Sequence record: KP010268
Length of the DNA: 37,146 nt
Strand: one strand, 5' to 3'
Origin: Shigella phage SfMu
Positions 1,269-11,413 of this stretch are shown one piece after another. The notes under the pieces were generated by a model that saw nothing but the letters and a program-made list of their open reading frames with translations, was not told where the DNA came from and searched no databases. Within the stretch, counting starts at the first letter, position 1, and every line of letters starts with the position of its first letter. The translations under genes and the position numbers were made by a program.

Positions 1269-3257
1269 ATGAAAGAGTGGTATACAGCGAAAGAATTGCT
1301 TGGTTTTGCTGGTTTGCCAAAGCAAGCAACTAACATTACACGTAAGGCACAAAGAGAAGGCTGGGTGTTTAGGCAAGTTACAGGTACTAAAGGTGTATCA
1401 TTTGAATTCAATATCAAATCATTTCCTGTTGCATTACGTGCTGAAATTTTATTGCAACAAGGAGGTATTGAAACAAGCCAGGGCCGTTTTGAAATCGCCC
1501 GCCCCACGCTGGAAGCCTATGATTATGATCGTGAGGCACTGTGGAGCAAATGGGATAACGCCAGCGATTCCCAGCGCAGACTTGCTGAAAAATGGTTGCC
1601 TGCGGTTCAGGCCGCAGACGAAATGCTGAACCAGGGGATTTCAACGAAAACGGCTTTTGCGACCGTTGCAGGGCATTACCAGGTCAGCGCATCCACTTTG
1701 CGTGACAAGTATTACCAGGTACAGAAGTTTGCGAAGCCTGACTGGGCGGCTGCTCTTGTTGATGGACGTGGTGCATCCCGTCGCAACGTTCACAAAAGTG
1801 AATTTGACGAGGATGCCTGGCAGTTTCTGATTGCAGATTATCTGCGACCGGAAAAACCCGCCTTCCGCAAATGTTATGAGCGTCTGGAACTGGCAGCCCG
1901 CGAGCATGGCTGGAGTATTCCCTCCCGTGCCACGGCCTTTCGCCGGATTCAGCAACTGGACGAGGCAATGGTTGTTGCCTGTCGTGAAGGTGAACATGCA
2001 CTGATGCATCTGATACCGGCACAGCAGCGAACTGTGGAACACCTGGACGCCATGCAGTGGATCAACGGCGACGGTTATCTGCATAACGTCTTTGTACGCT
2101 GGTTTAACGGTGATGTGATCCGTCCGAAAACATGGTTCTGGCAGGATGTGAAAACCCGAAAAATTCTGGGCTGGCGCTGCGATGTGAGCGAGAACATTGA
2201 TTCAATTCGCCTCTCGTTCATGGATGTTGTGACTCGCTACGGTATCCCGGAGGATTTTCACATCACCATTGATAACACCCGTGGTGCTGCGAATAAATGG
2301 CTGACGGGAGGCGCGCCCAATCGCTACCGCTTTAAGGTAAAAGAGGACGATCCAAAAGGACTGTTTTTACTGATGGGTGCGAAAATGCACTGGACAAGCG
2401 TTGTTGCCGGTAAAGGCTGGGGCCAGGCAAAACCTGTTGAACGTGCTTTCGGTGTTGGTGGGCTTGAGGAATACGTTGATAAGCATCCGGCACTGGCTGG
2501 CGCATATACGGGGCCAAATCCGCAGGCAAAACCTGATAACTATGGCGACCGCGCTGTTGATGCAGAGCTGTTTCTGAAAACCCTTGCCGAAGGTGTGGCG
2601 ATGTTCAATGCCAGAACAGGCCGTGAAACAGAAATGTGCGGGGGCAAACTCTCGTTTGATGATGTTTTCGAGCGTGAATACGCCAGAACGATTGTGCGTA
2701 AGCCAACCGAAGAACAAAAACGGATGCTGTTACTGCCTGCCGAGGCGGTGAACGTTTCACGCAAAGGCGAGTTTACGCTTAAAGTTGGCGGCTCCCTTAA
2801 AGGCGCGAAAAACGTTTATTACAACATGGCATTAATGAATGCCGGAGTGAAAAAAGTTGTGGTCAGATTTGATCCACAGCAGTTACACAGCACGGTTTAT
2901 TGCTACACCCTGGACGGTCGGTTTATCTGTGAAGCGGAATGTCTGGCACCTGTTGCGTTTAATGATGCTGCGGCAGGCCGTGAATATCGCCGCCGCCAGA
3001 AACAACTGAAATCTGCGACGAAAGCAGCGATTAAGGCACAGAAACAAATGGATGCACTGGAAGTGGCAGAGCTGCTGCCGCAGATAGCCGAATCTGAAGC
3101 ACCAGAATCACGAATTGTCGGCATTTTCCGGCCTTCCGGTAATACGGAACGGGTGAAGAATCAGGAGCGTGATGATGAATACGAAACTGAGCGTGATGAA
3201 TATCTGAATCATTCGCTGGATATTCTGGAACAGAACAGACGTAAAAAAGTCATTTAA
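1269..3257 (+). CDS. A: Transposase A (MuA-like DDE transposase)
   Basis: 662 aa, the size and position of MuA; N-terminal domain [27 protein letters not shown] paralogous to repressor N-terminus; follows ner. Confidence 0.92.
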
Positions 3258-3295
3258 TTAACGTTTTAACAAAATTTAATTACGAGGTTATTCAG

Positions 3296-4234
3296 ATGAA
3301 TATTTCCGATATTCGCGCAGGACTGCGCACGCTTGTAGAAAATGAAGAAACCACCTTTAAACAAATTGCTCTTGAGAGCGGGCTTTCTACCGGAACTATC
3401 AGTAGTTTTATCAATGATAAGTACAACGGGGATAACGAGCGTGTTTTACAAATGCTGCAACGCTGGCTGGAAAAATATCATGCAGTTGCAGAGCTACCTG
3501 AACCGCCCCGCTTTGTGGAAACGCAGACGGTAAAACAAATCTGGACAAGTATGCGTTTTGCCAGCCTGACTGAAAGTATTGCTGTTGTATGTGGCAATCC
3601 TGGTGTGGGCAAAACCGAAGCGGCCCGTGAATATCGCCGCACCAATAACAATGTCTGGATGATCACCATTACGCCATCCTGTGCCAGCGTTCTGGAATGT
3701 CTTACTGAACTGGCGTTTGAGCTGGGAATGAATGACGCACCACGCCGTAAAGGGCCGCTCTCCCGCGCCCTGCGACGTCGCCTTGAAGGTACACAGGGGC
3801 TGGTTATCATCGACGAAGCAGATCATCTTGGTACTGAAGCTCTGGAAGAACTCCGCCTGTTACAGGAATCAACCCATATTGGCCTTGTGCTGATGGGCAA
3901 TCACCGCGTTTATTCAAATATGACGGGGGGTAACAGAACGGTTGAATTTGCCCGTCTGTTTTCCCGTATTGCAAAGCCCACTGCAATTAATAAAACCAAA
4001 AAAGCCGATGTAAAAGCTATTGCGGATGCCTGGCATATTAACGGCGAAAAAGAACTGGAGTTATTACAGCAGATTGCGCAGAAACCCGGTGCGCTTCGCA
4101 TTCTGAATCATTCACTTCGCCTTGCCGCCATGACAGCCCATGGTAAAGGTGAGCGTGTTAATGAAGATTATCTGCGTCAGGCTTTCCGTGAATTAGACCT
4201 GGACGTTGATATTTCAACGCTGCTGCGTAATTAA
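3296..4234 (+). CDS. B: Transposition ATPase B (MuB-like AAA+ target DNA activator)
   Basis: 312 aa; Walker A GNPGVGKT and Walker B-like VIIDEADHL visible; directly downstream of A. Confidence 0.92.
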   Translation: MNISDIRAGLRTLVENEETTFKQIALESGLSTGTISSFINDKYNGDNERVLQMLQRWLEKYHAVAELPEPPRFVETQTVKQIWTSMRFASLTESIAVVCGNPGVGKTEAAREYRRTNNNVWMITITPSCASVLECLTELAFELGMNDAPRRKGPLSRALRRRLEGTQGLVIIDEADHLGTEALEELRLLQESTHIGLVLMGNHRVYSNMTGGNRTVEFARLFSRIAKPTAINKTKKADVKAIADAWHINGEKELELLQQIAQKPGALRILNHSLRLAAMTAHGKGERVNEDYLRQAFRELDLDVDISTLLRN

Positions 4235-4249
4235 GAAGGATAAGAAATT

Positions 4250-4477
4250 ATGATGGCCCGAAATATAAAAATGGCAACGGATGCGCAGAACTGGTTACAG
4301 GCGCGCGGGAGTCACGTGAATGAATCATATCTCGGCGTGGCGCGTCCGATCCTTGAAATCACTTACCCTCCGGTGGAACTGGTAAAAAGCGCGGTCAGAA
4401 TTATGGAGCATAAGTCCGGGGTAGCCCGTTCTGTATGGACGGCCCGTCTTAATGGTTGCCAGATTATCTGGAGATAA
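4250..4477 (+). CDS. Small early protein, Kil-like by position (75 aa)
   Basis: First gene after B, where Mu kil lies; name is by position only. Confidence 0.55.
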
Positions 4478-4479
4478 CG

Positions 4480-4710
4480 ATGTGTACTAAAGCTGAAAAA
4501 TATATTGAATGGGTTAAACGGGTACAGAATAACAATGTGGCTCTGACTGCATTTAATTGCCCCAAATGCAAAGAGCAAATTATGACGCAATGCTCACCAG
4601 AAAATGAAGTATGGGACTCCTTTGCATGTTGTCCGTGGTGCAGCGCAGTTTTCTTTAAGCAGGTAAAAGGCGCGAAGGTAAAAGCCAGCGCAGTTATTCA
4701 GAATCAATAA
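4480..4710 (+). CDS. Small early protein with zinc-ribbon Cys motifs (76 aa)
   Basis: CPKC ... CCPWC motifs; GGAG RBS 6 nt upstream of ATG 4480 (six-frame ORF extends to 4456). Confidence 0.6.
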   Translation: MCTKAEKYIEWVKRVQNNNVALTAFNCPKCKEQIMTQCSPENEVWDSFACCPWCSAVFFKQVKGAKVKASAVIQNQ

Positions 4711-4721
4711 GGAGAAACAAA

Positions 4722-4985
4722 ATGGCAAAAGTAATTATTGAAATTAAAAATACAGTATCTGGAATTAAAGGACGGAATTTGCGCACCAGCATTGCGGTTG
4801 ACGGTAGTGTGGAACTGGACGGTGATGAGGGGACACTTGCAGGTCTGGTGGCGTTACTGGTGCTTAATAAAAGCCAGAAAATAATTAATGAGTCAGCCCA
4901 TGAAGCTATCGAGATTTTGAAAAACGATGGTGTCATTACCGGTGGCCGTGTCACTGAAATGGCTGTTGAAAAAACATGCCACTGA
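4722..4985 (+). CDS. Hypothetical early protein (87 aa)
   Basis: Strong AAGGAG RBS upstream of ATG; tightly packed in the early operon. Confidence 0.65.
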   Translation: MAKVIIEIKNTVSGIKGRNLRTSIAVDGSVELDGDEGTLAGLVALLVLNKSQKIINESAHEAIEILKNDGVITGGRVTEMAVEKTCH

Positions 4986-4999
4986 AAGGAACGCTGACA

Positions 5000-5419
5000 A
5001 TGAACGTCAAAATCCGAAATGAAATCCGGGCATTAATTCGGATTAAAGAGCGTAATAACAATGGTGGAGACTTGCGCGAATTTATTTGTGCGCGCGAAGT
5101 TGAGGGGTATGGCGAAAAGACTTACCTGATTGCATTTGACCATTACAGCATTTGTGCGCGTTATTGCGGAGAGGCGGTATTCCGCGCCATTACGTTTGGC
5201 AATGCCTTCAATGTGGATTTATGGGAGTACGTCATGGACCGGGAATACATCTGCGCATCAGACCCTGAAGCCCGTGAAATGTGGCAGCGTATCTGGCGCG
5301 ATTACCGGTTAATGGCAAAAGGCTGGGCGCGCTGTTGTTATTCCTCGCTTGCCCTGAAAGCGGTTCAGTTATCGCTGCGGCATATTCCGGCATCACTGCG
5401 CGAGCCTCTGTTGTACTGA
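5000..5419 (+). CDS. Hypothetical early protein (139 aa)
   Basis: AAGGA RBS 9 nt upstream of ATG 5000; six-frame ORF extends to 4976 overlapping the previous gene. Confidence 0.6.
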   Translation: MNVKIRNEIRALIRIKERNNNGGDLREFICAREVEGYGEKTYLIAFDHYSICARYCGEAVFRAITFGNAFNVDLWEYVMDREYICASDPEAREMWQRIWRDYRLMAKGWARCCYSSLALKAVQLSLRHIPASLREPLLY

Positions 5420-5719
5420 GTGGTGACCGGAATGACGTGTAATCGTAAACGCTGGTCACGCGAAGACCGGGAATTTATCGAAGCCAGTGTCGGAAAAATG
5501 ACCGTCGAGGAAATGGCGAAAAAACTGAAAGTTGCCCCAACCGCCCTACAGGCACATGCCAGAAGGCACGGAATATCGTTGTGTGCATACCGGGTCAGTG
5601 AGCACGACAAATATTTATGCCGTGAACTTCATAAAGAAGGGCTGGCTATTCATGTGATAGCCAAAAAGATGGAATTAAGCAATCGTGCTGTATCCGGCAT
5701 TGTATACAGTGAATATTAA
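5420..5719 (+). CDS. Hypothetical early protein (99 aa), possible helix-turn-helix
   Basis: ORF abuts the previous stop; start codon uncertain (GTG 5420 or ATG 5432). Confidence 0.5.
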   Translation: MVTGMTCNRKRWSREDREFIEASVGKMTVEEMAKKLKVAPTALQAHARRHGISLCAYRVSEHDKYLCRELHKEGLAIHVIAKKMELSNRAVSGIVYSEY

Positions 5720-5737
5720 TTAACAGGAGCTTTATTT

Positions 5738-6262
5738 ATGGCTAAACCCGCAAAACGAATCAGGAACGCCGCAGCGGCTTATGTTCCGCAATCCCGCGAT
5801 GCTGTGGTATGTGATATCCGCCGGATTGGGGACCTGCAACGCGAAGCGGCACGACTTGAAACGGAAATGAATGATGCCATCGCGGAAATTACGGAGAAAT
5901 TTGCAGCCCGGATTGCACCGCTTAAAACCGATATTGAAACCCTTTCAAAAGGCGTTCAGGGATGGTGTGAAGCGAACCGCGACGAACTGACGAACGGCGG
6001 CAAAGTGAAGACGGCAAATCTTGTCACCGGCGATGTATCATGGCGTCAACGCCCGCCGTCAGTGAGCATTCGCGGCGTGGATGCCGTGATGGAAACGCTG
6101 GAGCGTCTTGGCCTGCAACGCTTTATTCGCACGAAGCAGGAAATCAACAGGGAAGCGATTTTACTGGAACCGAAAGCGGTCGCAGGCGTTGCCGGAATTA
6201 CGGTTAAATCAGGCATTGAGGATTTTTCTATTATTCCATTTGAACAGGAAGCCGGTATTTAA
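5738..6262 (+). CDS. gam: Gam, DNA-end-binding host-nuclease inhibitor (Ku-like)
   Basis: 174 aa MAKPAKRI...AAAAYVPQ...IPFEQEAGI recognised as Mu Gam; AGGAG RBS. Confidence 0.9.
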   Translation: MAKPAKRIRNAAAAYVPQSRDAVVCDIRRIGDLQREAARLETEMNDAIAEITEKFAARIAPLKTDIETLSKGVQGWCEANRDELTNGGKVKTANLVTGDVSWRQRPPSVSIRGVDAVMETLERLGLQRFIRTKQEINREAILLEPKAVAGVAGITVKSGIEDFSIIPFEQEAGI

Positions 6263-6359
6263 TACCACCATTAATATTTAATTAATTCACATTCTTTTAA
6301 TTATGGCGCGATGCGTCAGGGGACGACTCGCGCCTGAATCAGGACCAGAGGAAATGAAT

Positions 6360-6908
6360 ATGAAAGCATATGCTTATTTTAAACTGAGTGACGCAGCCGC
6401 TAACGGTTATACGATTCGCTGGCTGAAAGATGTTTCTGTTAAGCGTGACAAAATCATCTGCTCATTGCAGCGTGCGTTTGGCGCAGACGGTGTTTCCCTT
6501 GTCAGTAACAGAGGGTATGAACGGGTTGAATGTATCTGGATGAATCAATTAGCGCCGGAATTATGGCGTGGTAAATCAGACGGACTGTTTATTGGTGGAT
6601 TTCAGTTTTATGGCGTTGTACCGGATATAACAACACCGGAAGGCCGAAACAATGCGACGCTTATTCAGGAACATGAAGAGCAACTCCGGAAATATCCCAC
6701 ATTCCCGGTCTGGTTGTGTAATGAACTCGGGGTTGATGTTGTACCCAACATGTTTGATCTCAAATCAGTCTGGACGATGCACCACAGCCGTGACGGATTC
6801 GGCATTTTGTTTGAGGTGTGCCTGCTGGATGGTGAGGTTAAGGGACCGGTTCCTGCCGAATGCCAGCGCATTAAACATTCTGAATTTGTGGCACTGACGG
6901 AGGAATAA
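6360..6908 (+). CDS. Hypothetical early protein (182 aa)
   Basis: AGAGGA RBS 7 nt upstream of ATG 6360; six-frame ORF extends to 6303. Confidence 0.6.
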   Translation: MKAYAYFKLSDAAANGYTIRWLKDVSVKRDKIICSLQRAFGADGVSLVSNRGYERVECIWMNQLAPELWRGKSDGLFIGGFQFYGVVPDITTPEGRNNATLIQEHEEQLRKYPTFPVWLCNELGVDVVPNMFDLKSVWTMHHSRDGFGILFEVCLLDGEVKGPVPAECQRIKHSEFVALTEE

Positions 6909-6911
6909 CCG

Positions 6912-7442
6912 GTGATTGATGCAAAAGTTCTGAACGGTGTCAGCACATTATTACGGGCTCACGGGCGTCTGACCTGTGGGGTTCTGGCAGAGAAAATGCA
7001 AATGCCACCCTCTGCAATGGTGTATTTCCTGCGTGATGCGGTTGATGCCGGAGTGCTCACCGAATGCAACGGATTTTATGACGTTCCGCGCCCACGTCCG
7101 ACGCCGCCTGTAAGACGAAACGCAACTGAGCAGCCTGCTGTTGATGATGCGGTGTGGTGCAACTGGCGTCGCTCATTACCCTGGGTGGAAGGTAATACCA
7201 TCCCCGCGCTGGCAAAAGAGTTTGCGACGGGCGTGCTGACCTGTGAGTCAGTCCACATTGTTGCTGAGGTGGATAACAGAATGTGCGAACAGGGAATGCC
7301 CCGTTTTGTGATGGCTTATATCGATATCCGGCTGGGGCGTTTTATTTGCAGTTCAAGCGCCTGGAATATCACCGACCATGTACTGCGTTATCTCATTCTT
7401 GATTGTTCTCTGGCTCCCGCAGCGGTGCAGGAGGTGGCGTGA
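6912..7442 (+). CDS. Hypothetical early protein (176 aa), GTG start
   Basis: GGAGG RBS 8 nt upstream of GTG 6912, immediately after the previous stop. Confidence 0.55.
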   Translation: MIDAKVLNGVSTLLRAHGRLTCGVLAEKMQMPPSAMVYFLRDAVDAGVLTECNGFYDVPRPRPTPPVRRNATEQPAVDDAVWCNWRRSLPWVEGNTIPALAKEFATGVLTCESVHIVAEVDNRMCEQGMPRFVMAYIDIRLGRFICSSSAWNITDHVLRYLILDCSLAPAAVQEVA

Positions 7443-7601
7443 TGTTTTTTAAAACGTCAAATCCCGCAGCACTGCTGGCATGGGACCAGTTTATGGCGCT
7501 GCCTGAAACTACGCGAAGAAGCCCGCCATCTTGATAAGGTTCTGGGTTGTGGTTGCCGGTCAGTATTCAGCACAGGTATTGGTGGGCGTCATTTTCATGG
7601 C

Positions 7602-7970
7602 GTGAATTTTCCGGGGAATGAGCGACCTTTCTCGCCAGAGTTGTGGACTGTACAACGCTCCGCATCAGGTAACAGTTGCAGGCCAAGAACATCGCGCATT
7701 CCTGCACATCTGCGGGAGCAGTCAAAAGAGCTGGCGAAAATATGGCAGGAGAATATTCCGGTCACTTATGCCCGTACTGACGCTCTCTTACCCGCACTGG
7801 GACTGGATTTCAGCGCAACAATATTCGGCCCGCTCCGGTGGTTCCGTGTTGGTGATGTGATTTACGTCATGACAGGGATGACTCCCGCACAGGGCCGCAT
7901 GACTGAAATCCTTTCTGACGAATTTATCCGGGCGCAAAAACAGGCGGAGGTAAACAATGGAAAACAATGA
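7602..7970 (+). CDS. Hypothetical early protein (122 aa), start uncertain
   Basis: Only long same-strand ORF filling this interval; no convincing RBS at GTG 7602; competing 80-aa frame at 7618..7860 looks less protein-like. Confidence 0.4.
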   Translation: MNFPGNERPFSPELWTVQRSASGNSCRPRTSRIPAHLREQSKELAKIWQENIPVTYARTDALLPALGLDFSATIFGPLRWFRVGDVIYVMTGMTPAQGRMTEILSDEFIRAQKQAEVNNGKQ

Positions 7971-8139
7971 AACATCGTATTCGTGGCTGGGGAAATTTAC
8001 CACGGTGAAACAGGAATGCCCGACCTGCGGTAATGAATCCCCTGAATATCTGAAAGAGTGCCCTCATTGTGGCGGGCAGAAATGCAACCACTGCGATATG
8101 GGCGATGACACGGCGTGCATGAATTGTGAAGGTGAGTGA
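7957..8139 (+). CDS. Small double zinc-ribbon protein (60 aa)
   Basis: Four CxxC motifs (CPTC, CPHC, CNHC, CMNC); GGAGG RBS upstream of ATG. Confidence 0.6.
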   Translation: MENNETSYSWLGKFTTVKQECPTCGNESPEYLKECPHCGGQKCNHCDMGDDTACMNCEGE

Positions 8140-8140
8140 T

Positions 8141-8449
8141 ATGAATAATGGTGTATTTTCAAAATCAGAAGAGCTTGCCGCCCTGCTGATTGCCGGTGGT
8201 TTGCCGAAAAAAGAAGTGCATGACTTTGTGAATTTTGTATATGAGCCGTCTCATGAAAAAGCTATTGACGAGGTCATGGCGTACCGGTTTGGCATTGTTG
8301 CTGAGTCACTGAGTCCTCACTGGATTATTGAAAATCTCCGCGCTATTGCTGATGGCAACGATAAATCAGCAGCCGTTGCTGCACTGGATGTGTTACGGCA
8401 AATGAGTCTGAAATTTTATCCTGAATTTATTCTGAGGGCCGCAAAATGA
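8141..8449 (+). CDS. Hypothetical early protein (102 aa)
   Basis: ATG 8141 directly after previous stop with AGGTGA RBS; six-frame ORF from GTG 8126. Confidence 0.6.
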   Translation: MNNGVFSKSEELAALLIAGGLPKKEVHDFVNFVYEPSHEKAIDEVMAYRFGIVAESLSPHWIIENLRAIADGNDKSAAVAALDVLRQMSLKFYPEFILRAAK

Positions 8450-8748
8450 ACAATGAAGATAAATTTACTCCCCTTAATATTGATAACGTCATGGCTGAAA
8501 AAGGGATGCTGGAACGTGTTCGCGCTATCGTTGAATATGGTATTAAGCATAATCTCACCGCCAGAGAAGTCCGTGACATTATCAACCGCGAAATGAATCG
8601 TCTGGAAACAGTAGTGGCACTGCAAAATGAAACAGCCCGCGAGGAGTACATCCGCCGCAGGCTGGGGTTATCAGACCAGGATATTGTTACTGACGCTCAT
8701 GTGTTTGAGGCTTTTGAGATCCGTCAGCATCTGGGTCTAACGAACTGA
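8446..8748 (+). CDS. Hypothetical early protein (100 aa)
   Basis: ATGA start/stop overlap with previous gene, GAGGG RBS. Confidence 0.6.
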   Translation: MNNEDKFTPLNIDNVMAEKGMLERVRAIVEYGIKHNLTAREVRDIINREMNRLETVVALQNETAREEYIRRRLGLSDQDIVTDAHVFEAFEIRQHLGLTN

Positions 8749-8953
8749 TAATGTCTTCCATGATCTTTGACAGTTGCATGTTTTCGCGGCGGCTTGTTCT
8801 TATTGCAGGCGCATCTTTTAAAATCTCTGCTGAAGAGCTGAAAATGGCCTGGCCCTCTTCTGCGGTGATGATCGCCTTCTTCACCAGAAGGCGCACCAGT
8901 GCTGATGCAATCGCATAACCTGCAACATCATAAGGTTGTACATTATTTTCCAT
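8687..8953 (-). CDS. Candidate reverse-oriented small ORF (88 aa) in the early operon
   Basis: Minus-strand ORF spanning the 274-bp plus-strand gap before gemA; GAGG RBS 5 nt upstream of its ATG; no homology recognised. Confidence 0.3.
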   Translation of the reverse strand: MENNVQPYDVAGYAIASALVRLLVKKAIITAEEGQAIFSSSAEILKDAPAIRTSRRENMQLSKIMEDIISSLDPDADGSQKPQTHERQ

Positions 8954-9022
8954 AAAATCCTCTCTGATTGATGTGTAAATTCAGGCGGTGTTGCAGCACC
9001 GCCTCTTTCCGGAGGTACGATC

Positions 9023-9574
9023 ATGAATCGCACATCCCTGATTAAATTAATCCATGTCGCCCGTCGGGAGCTACAACTCGACGACGACACTTACCGCGCT
9101 TTTCTGATGCAGAAAACGGGCAAAATCAGTTGCCGCGAGCTGACGGTAACGCAACTGGAACAGGTGCTCGATGCCATGAAAGAACGCGGCTTTAAGAAGC
9201 TGAATAAACATCCACGTCGCCGCTTTAAGGGGCATGTCACGCCCCGCGAGAAGGTATACAAAGTCTGGCAGCAGATGGCAGAAGACGGTTTTATTACCGA
9301 TGGCGGTGATGTGGCGCTGGATAAATATGTTCAGCGCCTGACGGCGAAACGTAATGGCGGACAGGGTGTTTCCACGCTGGCGTGGTGTCATGGCGACACC
9401 CTGTTGATTGTTCTCGAAACTCTCAAGCAGTGGCATATCCGCTGTATTCGTGAAGCCTTTTCCCGTCACGGGCTTCCGTTGCCGGTCAGTCCGTCCGGGC
9501 GTGAACTGCGCGGCTATGATGCCATGACGGCGGCTTATGCCCATGCCAGAAAGACACGGAGGATGGCACAATGA
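9023..9574 (+). CDS. gemA: GemA-like early protein (183 aa)
   Basis: Size and position immediately upstream of mor match Mu gemA; GGAGG RBS. Confidence 0.6.
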   Translation: MNRTSLIKLIHVARRELQLDDDTYRAFLMQKTGKISCRELTVTQLEQVLDAMKERGFKKLNKHPRRRFKGHVTPREKVYKVWQQMAEDGFITDGGDVALDKYVQRLTAKRNGGQGVSTLAWCHGDTLLIVLETLKQWHIRCIREAFSRHGLPLPVSPSGRELRGYDAMTAAYAHARKTRRMAQ

Positions 9575-9960
9575 CGGAAGATTTATTTGGTGATTTGCAG
9601 GATGACACCATCCTGGCACATCTTGACAATCCCGCAGAGGATGCGTCACGCTTTCCGGCACTGCTGGCGGAGCTGAACGATTTACTGCGCGGGGAGTTGT
9701 CCCGGCTGGGTGTTGATCCTGCCCATTCACTGGAGATTGTTGTGGCTATCTGTAAGCATCTGGGTGGCGGTCAGGTCTACATTCCACGCGGTCAGGTTCT
9801 GGACTCGCTGATTCGGGATTTGCGTATCTGGAATGATTTTAACGGTCGCAACGTCAGCGAACTGACCACCCGTTATGGTGTCACTTTCAATACGGTTTAC
9901 AAGGCCATTCGCCGGATGCGACGGCTGAAATACCGCCAGTACCAGCCCTCACTTCTGTAA
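9571..9960 (+). CDS. mor: Mor, middle operon regulator (transcription activator)
   Basis: 129 aa MTEDLFGDLQDDTILAHLDNPAED... recognised as Mu Mor; last gene of early operon; paralogous to C downstream. Confidence 0.9.
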   Translation: MTEDLFGDLQDDTILAHLDNPAEDASRFPALLAELNDLLRGELSRLGVDPAHSLEIVVAICKHLGGGQVYIPRGQVLDSLIRDLRIWNDFNGRNVSELTTRYGVTFNTVYKAIRRMRRLKYRQYQPSLL

Positions 9961-9965
9961 ACAGT

Positions 9966-9990
9966 AAAGCCGGTTAATCCGGCTTTTTTT
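9966..9990 (+). terminator. Rho-independent terminator at end of early operon
   Basis: AAAGCCGG-TTAAT-CCGGCTTT hairpin followed by T-run, directly after mor stop. Confidence 0.8.
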
Positions 9991-10037
9991 ACGTCCTCAA
10001 TATCCTGTGATGAATAACCGTACCGGGGGAAATCATC

Positions 10038-10268
10038 ATGGGTAAAGGCTGGAATGCATCCTTTCATCTTGGCAGACGTGAGCGGCTGCGTCAGGAGGTT
10101 TTGCACCGTGTCGCCGGTGGGCCACGGCCTGCGCCCCGCGACTATACCGGTCATGATGGCACCCACGGCAGTTATTACATGAAAGGCTGGCAGTCAGTTG
10201 ATATGCCGGAAATTCTTCACCACTGTCAACGTTATAAGGAAAAATATTGTGTACAGAAAATTCAGTGA
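10038..10268 (+). CDS. Hypothetical middle-operon ORF (76 aa)
   Basis: ORF between early terminator and C; no recognisable RBS, basic and Gly/Pro-rich composition. Confidence 0.35.
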   Translation: MGKGWNASFHLGRRERLRQEVLHRVAGGPRPAPRDYTGHDGTHGSYYMKGWQSVDMPEILHHCQRYKEKYCVQKIQ

Positions 10269-10380
10269 TGAATGTTTCGGGCCGTCCACGCTGATTAATG
10301 CGATAAAAGTGATTGCCCTTGTGGTTCTGATAACCATCAGTGCCGTGGTGTATCTTTTTGTCTGTTAACCGGGGGAAAAT

Positions 10381-10803
10381 ATGCAGCATGATTTATTTGA
10401 ACACGATCCGGCAATTCGCCAGTTAATCGGGCATATTGATAACATCCCGGCCCCGGAACTGGAATCACGCTGGCCCCGTTCAGTGGTTGATCTGATTGAT
10501 GTTCTGGAAAACGAACTGAAACGCCAGAACGTCAGCAATCCCCGTGAGCTTGCCCGTAAACAGGCCGTTGCCCTGTCCTGTTTTCTGGGGGGGCGGCAGT
10601 TTTACATCCCCTGCGGCGATACGATCCTGACCGCGTTACGCGACGATTTGCTTTACTGCCAGTTCAATGGTCGTAACATGGAAGAACTGCGTCGCCAGTA
10701 CCGCCTGTCCCAGCCGCAGATCTACCAGATTATTGCCCGCCAGAGAAAGCTGCATACACGACGTCATCAGCCTGATCTGTTCTCACCTGAAAGCCAGAAA
10801 TAA
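10381..10803 (+). CDS. C: C, late gene transcription activator
   Basis: 140 aa MQHDLFEHDPAIRQLIGHIDNIPAPELE... recognised as Mu C; Mor paralog (shared ...FYIPCGDTIL / QVYIPRGQVL and ...CQFNGRNMEEL / NDFNGRNVSEL). Confidence 0.9.
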   Translation: MQHDLFEHDPAIRQLIGHIDNIPAPELESRWPRSVVDLIDVLENELKRQNVSNPRELARKQAVALSCFLGGRQFYIPCGDTILTALRDDLLYCQFNGRNMEELRRQYRLSQPQIYQIIARQRKLHTRRHQPDLFSPESQK

Positions 10804-10894
10804 CCGGCATCCTGCCGGTTATTTCCTGTCACCATAATCCCGCACCTGCCATCTGATTTTTTAGACTGCCATCAGAGCATTTTTTCAGGGAAGC
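10804..10894 (+). promoter_or_regulatory. Putative late promoter Plys (C-dependent), overlapping a hairpin at the C stop
   Basis: Motif CATAATCCCGCACCT about 48-56 bp upstream of lys ATG, shared with the region upstream of gene I; hairpin AACCGGCA-TCC-TGCCGGTT at 10802..10820. Confidence 0.5.
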
Positions 10895-11413
10895 ATGATG
10901 GCGGGGATACCAAAAAAACTGAAAGCCGCACTGCTGGCGGCAACGATTGCCGGTGGCGGTGTGGGTGGTTATCAGGAAATGACCCGTCATTCTCTGATCC
11001 ATCTGGAAAATATCGCTTATATGCCTTACCGCGATATTGCCAGTGTGCTTACGGTCTGTGTGGGACATACCGGGCCGGATATCGAAATGCGCCGTTACAG
11101 CCATGCGGAGTGTATGGCTTTTCTCGACAGTGATTTAAAACCGGTTTATGCGGCAATCGATCGTCTTGTCAGGGTGCCGCTGACGCCATATCAGAAAACG
11201 GCGCTGGCAACGTTTATTTTCAACACCGGTGTTACCGCATTCAGTAAATCAACGCTGCTGAAAAAACTCAATGCCGGTGATTACGCCGGAGCGCGTGACC
11301 AGATGGCCCGCTGGGTGTTTGCCGCAGGCCATAAATGGAAAGGACTGATGAACCGTCGCGAAGTGGAAATGGCTATCTGGAATATCAGGGGGGCGGATGA
11401 CCTTCGCCAGTAA
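10895..11413 (+). CDS. lys: Endolysin (lysozyme-like, SAR-type N-terminus)
   Basis: 172 aa; Gly/Ala-rich weakly hydrophobic N-terminus KKLKAALLAATIAGGGVGGY typical of signal-anchor-release endolysins; recognised as Mu Lys. Confidence 0.88.
   Translation: MMAGIPKKLKAALLAATIAGGGVGGYQEMTRHSLIHLENIAYMPYRDIASVLTVCVGHTGPDIEMRRYSHAECMAFLDSDLKPVYAAIDRLVRVPLTPYQKTALATFIFNTGVTAFSKSTLLKKLNAGDYAGARDQMARWVFAAGHKWKGLMNRREVEMAIWNIRGADDLRQ

Follow-up and report, generated by a model that had tools for sequence, protein, structure and literature searches.

The early block between B and gemA

Shigella phage SfMu, a Shigella flexneri phage published in 2015 (Jakhetia & Verma, PMC4406740), has a genome of 37,146 bp with a guanine-plus-cytosine (GC) content of 51.9%. 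The window analysed here is that whole sequence (record KP010268; computed GC content, 51.95%), and the region in question is the stretch 4250-8748, in which 12 tightly packed rightward genes are found between B (3296-4234) and gemA (9023-9574), the latter followed by mor (9571-9960), all of them on the same plus strand as the block. Megablast places the window in Muvirus, with ~96% identity to Mu and D108 over ~90% of the window length. The explanation that we favour, to which as a whole we give a probability of about 0.85, is that the block represents the semi-essential (SE) early region of a Mu-family phage, an ordinary and already-known region. In Mu the SE region has been described as lying within the Pe early transcript, as dispensable and as largely uncharacterised in its functions (PMC3820752), which agrees with the original prediction, made from the letters alone, of a dispensable early accessory region.

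About 12 open reading frames (ORFs), tightly packed and rightward, had been predicted in this interval, and 12 genes are indeed present, with intergenic gaps of -14 to +18 nt and a 97-nt spacer 3' of gam as the sole exception. The count holds for genes, but gp12 is not an intact ORF (see the next section). The coordinates computed here for ORF4-ORF15 are identical to those in Table S1 of the SfMu paper (PMC4406740). In the same interval Mu has 10 rightward genes versus the 12 of SfMu, and collinear homologues of Mu gp5-gp14 are all present in order (10 of 10), at 78-99% amino acid identity, gp12 being frameshifted. The gene-by-gene comparison with Mu and D108 that the original prediction had proposed accordingly returned ten syntenic homologues and two genes without counterpart, here called X and Y. 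Every ORF of the block has a match in PHROGs (E <= 1e-39), and, in all cases where dS could be measured, the pairwise ratio of nonsynonymous to synonymous divergence (dN/dS) from relatives lies at 0.04-0.6, below 1 for all genes; the ORFs are therefore real genes rather than chance, and they are under purifying selection. X, Y and gp6, with a dN/dS of ~0.4, evolve faster than gp8, gp11 and gp12, while kil, gp8, gp9, gam and gp11 are kept in nearly all Mu-like loci examined and have a low dN/dS.

A Mu-like long early transcript from Pe would cover the block, as taken from Mu, and with genes 0-18 nt apart or overlapping, a spacing that fits translational coupling, the block may work as a translationally coupled early operon. 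The scan of the block for promoters and terminators yielded nothing distinctive, with two promoter-like sites, of which one is on the minus strand, versus 7.6 expected from shuffles. This is compatible with transcription from Pe, short of proof, and it counts against our explanation to the extent that the operon structure is borrowed from Mu.

Table 1. Features of the B-gemA interval of SfMu (positions in the window; percentages in the last column are identities)
Feature	Mu name	SfMu ORF	Position	Strand	Size	PHROG family	Remarks
kil	gp5	ORF5	4250..4477	+	75 aa	phrog_2743	99% amino acid identity to Mu Kil
gp6	E5/Mup06	ORF6	4480..4710	+	76 aa	phrog_3786	zinc-ribbon-like
gp7	E6/Mup07 = gnarl2	ORF7	4722..4985	+	87 aa		97% to NP_050611.1
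gp8	E7/Mup08	ORF8	5000..5419	+	139 aa	phrog_3690	6 Cys (4.3%); 92% to Mu
gp9	E8/Mup09		5420..5719	+	99 aa	phrog_323	helix-turn-helix protein; 86% to Mu
gam	gp10	ORF10	5738..6262	+	174 aa		DNA-end-binding host-nuclease inhibitor; 94% to Mu Gam
hairpin GGCGCGA-N16-TCGCGCC			6305..6334	+			in gam-X spacer 6263-6359 (97 nt), past AT-rich stretch
X		ORF11	6354/6360..6908	+	184 aa from ATG 6354 or 182 aa from ATG 6360	phrog_2260	
gp11	E10-12/Mup11	ORF12	6912..7442	+	176 aa	phrog_1949	GTG start; 95% to Mu
gp12 pseudogene	E13/Mup12		7442..7970	+		phrog_2314	'GA' missing between 7498 and 7499
gp13	E14/Mup13	ORF13	7957..8139	+	60 aa	phrog_5584	double zinc finger; 97% to Mu
Y		ORF14	8141..8449	+	102 aa	phrog_1988	extra relative to Mu/D108
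gp14	E15/Mup14	ORF15	8446..8748	+	100 aa	phrog_6075	99% to Mu
gp15	Mup15	ORF16	8687..8953	-	88 aa	phrog_8747	95% to Mu

A frameshift in gp12 overlooked in the published annotation

In the SfMu paper Mu orf12 is said to be without SfMu homologue, and the ORF table skips from ORF12 (end 7442) to ORF13 (start 7957) (PMC4406740). The 514 bp at 7443-7956 are thus empty in the published annotation, yet gp12 is located there with a private 2-nt deletion. Residues 1-19 are encoded at 7442-7498 and are 100% identical to Mu gp12, while residues 21-176 follow at 7500-7967 in a different frame with 95.5% identity; the match to the PHROG family reaches E 3e-68, and PF26885 is present in intact homologues. 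Because of the deletion, reading leaves the gp12 frame after codon 19 and runs into a stop at 7532-7534, and the longest ORF that remains is a 122-aa remnant with a GTG start. At this site the window reads ATGGCGCTGCC versus ATGGCGGACTGCC in seven relatives, and the seven relatives, which carry ATGGCGGACTGC there, all encode proteins of 174-176 aa. In addition, the segment 7400-8450 has 14 full-length matches in E. coli, and each of them is 2 nt longer than the window.

The remnant is 100% identical at the amino acid level to gp12 of the Yersinia phage YpM5, with a dS of 0.009, which makes the lesion either very recent or an error. The second possibility, which would weaken our interpretation of the locus, is that the 2 nt were lost in sequencing or assembly rather than by mutation, SfMu really having an intact 176-aa gp12. 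The absence of further decay in the remnant speaks for it, as do the intact gp12 of every relative examined and the origin of the genome, for which MiSeq reads were assembled with Velvet and PCR was used to close one gap (PMC4406740). Nevertheless, clean 2-nt deletions away from homopolymers are uncommon Illumina errors, the accuracy of the contig was checked by read mapping according to the authors (PMC4406740), and gp12 is naturally absent from most prophages that carry X, so that its loss is tolerated. On balance an artefact is rather unlikely, and we read the deletion as probably a genuine mutation.

Gene X and the turnover of early cassettes

X is absent from Mu, D108, YpM5, PhiR68_1 and Mu3F6, and the 554 bp of the X region (6343-6896) correspond to 3 nt in Mu. 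Along 6200-6800 the GC content falls to 0.42-0.46 across X versus 0.53-0.57 in gam and gp11. The protein shares 71% amino acid identity with that of the Yersinia phage YpM3 and 97-100% with copies in E. coli prophages and in IMG/VR contigs, where the search returned 11 loci. The family is small: 14 matches at E <= 1e-3 were obtained with the X profile among 1.84 billion representative proteins, and no X relative was confirmed by the scan of species-representative genome contigs. A copy 99% identical in E. coli VL40 (L008, 3598-4146) contains an internal stop and is annotated by PGAP as two fragments, an observation which indicates that X can also decay in nature.

No Pfam family matches X at E <= 0.1, PF17457 (DUF5420; gathering score 26 bits) does not match it directly, and no NCBIfam match was found. 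The connection to DUF5420 is made through intermediates. Full-length matches of the X profile include the proteins P0025 (E 1.8e-7) and P0028 (E 1.2e-6), which themselves score 48.3 and 43.4 bits, respectively, against PF17457, and several of the X-profile matches pass its threshold; an E. coli copy of X with 99% identity is named 'DUF5420 family protein' by PGAP. In addition, the C-terminal motif I-K-x-S-E-F-[IV]-A-L-T-E-E is common to X and DUF5420 members, even at ~25% identity. Judged by these intermediate sequences and the motif, X is a distant DUF5420 relative. Structure prediction, another of the steps suggested beforehand, served X better than Y: the AlphaFold2 (AF2) model of X is confident, with a predicted local distance difference test (pLDDT) score of 83.9, although it has no meaningful PDB neighbour (best Foldseek E = 0.23); among the viral models of BFVD it matches seven uncharacterised proteins of similar size at E <= 1e-3. 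A link between DUF5420 and Gam, proposed from their adjacency in Mu-like prophages, was dropped, as distant members occur in unrelated mobile-element contexts without gam, and an origin of X and gp11 as local-duplication paralogues was ruled out by BLASTP.

Regarding the proteins unique to SfMu, its authors guessed that they may be divergent homologues of Mu-only proteins (PMC4406740). BLASTP detects no similarity between X and gp12. Nevertheless, when an alignment of X and DUF5420 was compared by hhalign with a diverse gp12 (PF26885) alignment, 158 columns were aligned, near full length, with a probability of 79.7%, an E-value of 1.5e-5 and a score of 39.4. In 200 column shuffles of the gp12 alignment the mean score was 13.0 (standard deviation 2.2, maximum 20.2), which puts the observed value at z ~12, and the reversed-alignment control scored 14.3. 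Based on these profiles, X and gp12 are probably remote homologues, a link that appears in none of the databases consulted. Their distribution is suggestive in the same direction, as a mostly either/or pattern fits homology: gp12 is detectable in three of the 18 distinct loci that carry X (L011, L017 and, as a broken copy, the window), and in all five of the Muvirus phages without X. Several observations weigh against the relationship. Profile-to-sequence support is weak, with a best score of 7.6 bits and a per-comparison p of ~2e-4; PHROGs puts X and gp12 in different families; both genes are intact in L011 and L017, so that they are not incompatible; and the loci carrying X were collected with X as the query and are not phylogenetically independent, for which reason the either/or pattern gives no clean statistic. 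If the relationship holds, it would suggest, together with the distribution, that X and gp12 are functionally redundant.

The anatomy of the junctions gives an idea of how such genes come and go. In Mu, the sequence 3' of the hairpin passes directly into actgaggaataa+ATG upstream of gp11, and actgaggaataa represents the last codons of X with its stop; at the same junction SfMu has the whole X gene, ending ctgacggaggaataa. The Shine-Dalgarno sequence of gp11 sits within the last codons of X, and Mu looks like a deletion that kept these codons and, with them, the Shine-Dalgarno sequence. Further along the block, YpM3 (L004, 4164-4715) has a clean 529-nt deletion of gp12, in which gp11 is fused to the final residues of gp12 and overlaps the start of gp13. 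This fusion to the gp12 tail mirrors the retention in Mu of the last X codons before gp11. From both junctions, the loss of a cassette appears to spare the 3' codons that bear the ribosome-binding site or the start codon of the next gene. The hairpin itself, which the X cassette junction adjoins on its 3' side, has a stem invariant in 22 of 22 sequences (21 loci and the window), a variable loop and a minimum free energy of -15 to -20 kcal/mol; it has no T-run 3' of the stem and no Rfam match.

Across natural prophages X, gp12, Y, gp13, gp14, gp6 and gp7 are variable and dispensable. Gene content varies by the exchange of cassettes at three hot spots, namely gp6/gp7, the gam|gp11 junction where X lies, and the interval from gp12 to gemA, which comprises gp12, gp13, Y, gp14 and gp15. 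All twelve genes are present together in the IMG/VR contig L011, collinear with 3167-10900 at 94% identity.

The cysteine-rich gp13, with 13.3% Cys versus a baseline of 0.9% in the long ORFs of the window, contains four CxxC motifs that are kept in all homologues. In the Pfam zinc-ribbon models it stays below the gathering score, the best being DnaJ_CXXCXGXG with 19.2 bits versus 32.7. The E. coli prophages L031 and L032 (4679-5374 in both) encode a 231-aa fusion protein, matching phrog_6418, in which the gp13 module follows in frame an unrelated N-terminal domain of ~175 aa. The N-terminal domain was considered as gp12-like or X-like and is neither. This fusion hints that gp13 works with whatever its upstream neighbour encodes. 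A bolder view, which we think quite unlikely to hold in full, would make X and gp12 members of a single superfamily, not linked before, of early cassettes that flank gp11 in Mu-like phages and can replace one another, acting as host-specific binders in counter-defence or host takeover; gp13, joined in some E. coli prophages to a third cassette of unrelated sequence, might then be a partner module, and SfMu would have been caught in mid-swap, with gp12 just inactivated and X replacing it.

Y, the second additional gene, includes 292 bp (8151-8442) without counterpart in Mu and is absent from D108 too; its GC content is also low (~0.45). Amino acid identity is 99% to YpM5, 81% to YpM3 and 42-56% in other enterobacterial Mu-like prophages, and among the matches found its homologues are restricted to Enterobacteriaceae. 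No Pfam, NCBIfam, PADLOC or PDB match was obtained, the profile search of PDB sequences giving nothing below E 0.9, and the AF2 model is all-helical and of low confidence (pLDDT 54.5), too poor for a fold search. The idea that Y and gp14 are local-duplication paralogues was ruled out by BLASTP. Next to them lies gp15, which runs leftward, against the direction of the early operon in which it is placed; its 62-bp overlap with gp14 matches the maximum ORF overlap reported for SfMu (62 bp, orf15/orf16; PMC4406740). Upstream, gp11 carries PF25754 (Gp11_C, E 3.6e-40) and 4.0% Cys.

The left part of the block runs from kil to gam. The original prediction had considered only Gam to be recognisable, a statement that has to be extended to Kil, assigned to the PHROG family 'Kil protein for bacterial septation inhibition' at E 4e-43. 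Gam matches PF07352 (Phage_Mu_Gam, E 1.8e-41) and has been described as a Ku orthologue (PMC3820752). The same prediction had pointed to gp6 and gp13 as two zinc-ribbon-like, Cys-rich ORFs, and the motifs are confirmed in both. The gp6 protein, with 9.2% Cys, contains CPKC at residue 27 and CCPWC at 50-54; it is 100% identical to its YpM5 homologue and only 78% to that of Mu, despite which the paired CxxC is kept in Mu (CPGC, CPWC), and its dN/dS of ~0.4 was measured against the Mu allele. None of the Pfam zinc ribbons reaches the gathering score with gp6, the best being zf-LITAF-like (16.4 bits versus a cutoff of 23.8). The position of gp7 is occupied by an unrelated 89-aa allele in D108, YpM5, PhiR68_1 and Mu3F6. 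For gp8, with a dN/dS of 0.04-0.23, no match was found in Pfam or among PDB sequences, and gp9 belongs to the PHROG family 'transcriptional regulator, D5-like' (E 2e-26), with many helix-turn-helix (HTH) Pfam matches, every one below threshold.

Functions of the block and comparison with known systems

Host-directed functions had been expected in this region and are represented by Gam, Kil and the O-antigen modifier gnarl2, which is Mup07. In all likelihood Gam binds DNA ends and blocks the host exonuclease, and Kil blocks septation. The remaining products, gp6, gp8, gp9, gp11, gp13, gp14, X and Y, for which no enzyme-domain matches were obtained, most likely bind host or phage proteins or DNA. 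In the literature search no paper mentioned DUF5420, PF17457, Mu-Gp12 or PF25754, and the locus names Mup06-Mup14 retrieved only papers on mouse urinary proteins.

Experimental information on the block comes from a screen of 200 accessory genes for counter-defence and cell death, which included Mup06 (orf137, 'Zn finger'), Mup07 (orf63), Mup08 (orf119), Mup13 (orf114, 'Double Zn finger'), Mup14 (orf134) and Mup15 (orf85) (Silas et al. 2023, bioRxiv 10.1101/2023.04.06.535777). The sole phenotype reported among these six Mu genes is that of Mup07 (orf63/gnarl2): the Mu protein shifts O-antigen bands downward and strongly sensitises wild E. coli to T5, while for orf137, orf114, orf119, orf134 and orf85 the text of the paper gives no phenotype (10.1101/2023.04.06.535777). 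The gnarl2 reference sequence used here, NP_050611.1, was taken from supplementary file 19 of that work. Given its sequence, SfMu gp7 can be equated with considerable confidence with gnarl2, the small O-antigen-altering protein. The receptor of SfMu is the O-antigen (PMC4406740), and once infection has taken place its copy of gnarl2 could hide this receptor or bring about superinfection exclusion. SfMu, with both gnarl2 and an O-antigen receptor, is a convenient system for finding out what use a phage makes of its own gnarl protein.

The original prediction expected anti-defence or host-modulating proteins in the block, an expectation that is partly supported. Gam and gnarl2, both host-directed, agree with it; X and Y are tied to anti-defence only by location, faster evolution and cassette turnover; the Mu homologues of the two zinc-finger ORFs were already screened, and no phenotype is reported for them in the text. 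Not every ORF turned out to have a Mu or D108 homologue of known function, so the idea survives. In its strongest form it states that the uncharacterised ORFs, and in particular X, Y, gp6 and gp13, encode proteins dedicated to the inhibition of restriction, CRISPR or abortive-infection systems. The early, dispensable and fast-turnover block beside the known counter-defence or host-directed factors Gam and gnarl2 would suit such a role, and so would the dN/dS of X, Y and gp6, above that of gp8, gp11 and gp12, the cassette-like presence and absence across prophages, and the choice of six Mu genes of the block as accessory genes by Silas et al. However, Mup07 alone of those six has a reported phenotype, and X and Y resemble no characterised protein. 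PADLOC gave no defence-model match for the ORFs of the block apart from a marginal one for gp9 (E 0.0097), no dedicated anti-defence library having been searched. Dedicated anti-defence is thus a possible but doubtful account of these ORFs.

The alternative that the uncharacterised products serve mainly the programme of the phage itself, in early transcription, transposition-replication or immunity, deserves a similarly guarded welcome, being plausible yet improbable to much the same degree. The SE region of Mu has genetically defined cim, arm and lig/gem activities. Gem, likewise encoded there, is a modulator of host ligase and gyrase (PMC3820752), 'protein cim' is listed as a best hit of ORF5 in the SfMu table (PMC4406740), gp9 has its assignment to a transcriptional-regulator family and its sub-threshold HTH matches, and the conservation of kil, gp8, gp9, gam and gp11 in nearly all Mu-like loci, with low dN/dS, points in the same direction. 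Against this, the seven variable genes named above are dispensable across natural prophages, SfMu forms plaques despite its broken gp12 (PMC4406740), and the phenotype of gp7 is host-directed. Our preferred explanation is an ordinary SE region with modular cassette turnover, whose small products would be mostly non-enzymatic binding proteins directed at the host or at the phage.

Taken as a whole, the original prediction observed correctly and interpreted reasonably, and most of what it described had already been published: homologues of half of the genes of the block have been screened for counter-defence, and the gene gain that it suspected, real in that X and Y are extra relative to Mu and D108, was reported in 2015 (PMC4406740). 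Compared with Mu (NC_000929, Mup05-Mup15) and D108, the block occupies the same position between B and gemA and has the same gene order, with ten genes at 78-99% identity; Mu and D108 are without X and Y, the gp12 of Mu is intact, and D108 differs further in its gp7 allele, in a divergent gp14 with 36% identity and in the absence of gp15. With DUF5420 (PF17457), X shares the C-terminal motif and the profile reach, although it falls below a direct match to the model. In relation to the library of Silas et al., SfMu gp7 is 97% identical to the tested gnarl2 over 87 aa, the assays having used the Mu proteins, whereas X, Y, gp11 and gp12 fall outside the 200 genes and are concrete, cheap candidates for assays of that type. 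Finally, with respect to the published description of SfMu, X and Y are ORF11 and ORF14, the two 'unique' proteins (PMC4406740), but they are not exclusive to this phage, as they also occur in Yersinia Mu-like phages (X in YpM3; Y in YpM3 and YpM5) and in E. coli and Salmonella prophages; to that description the present work adds the gp12 pseudogene, the probable link of ORF11 to DUF5420 and gp12, and the anatomy of the junctions.

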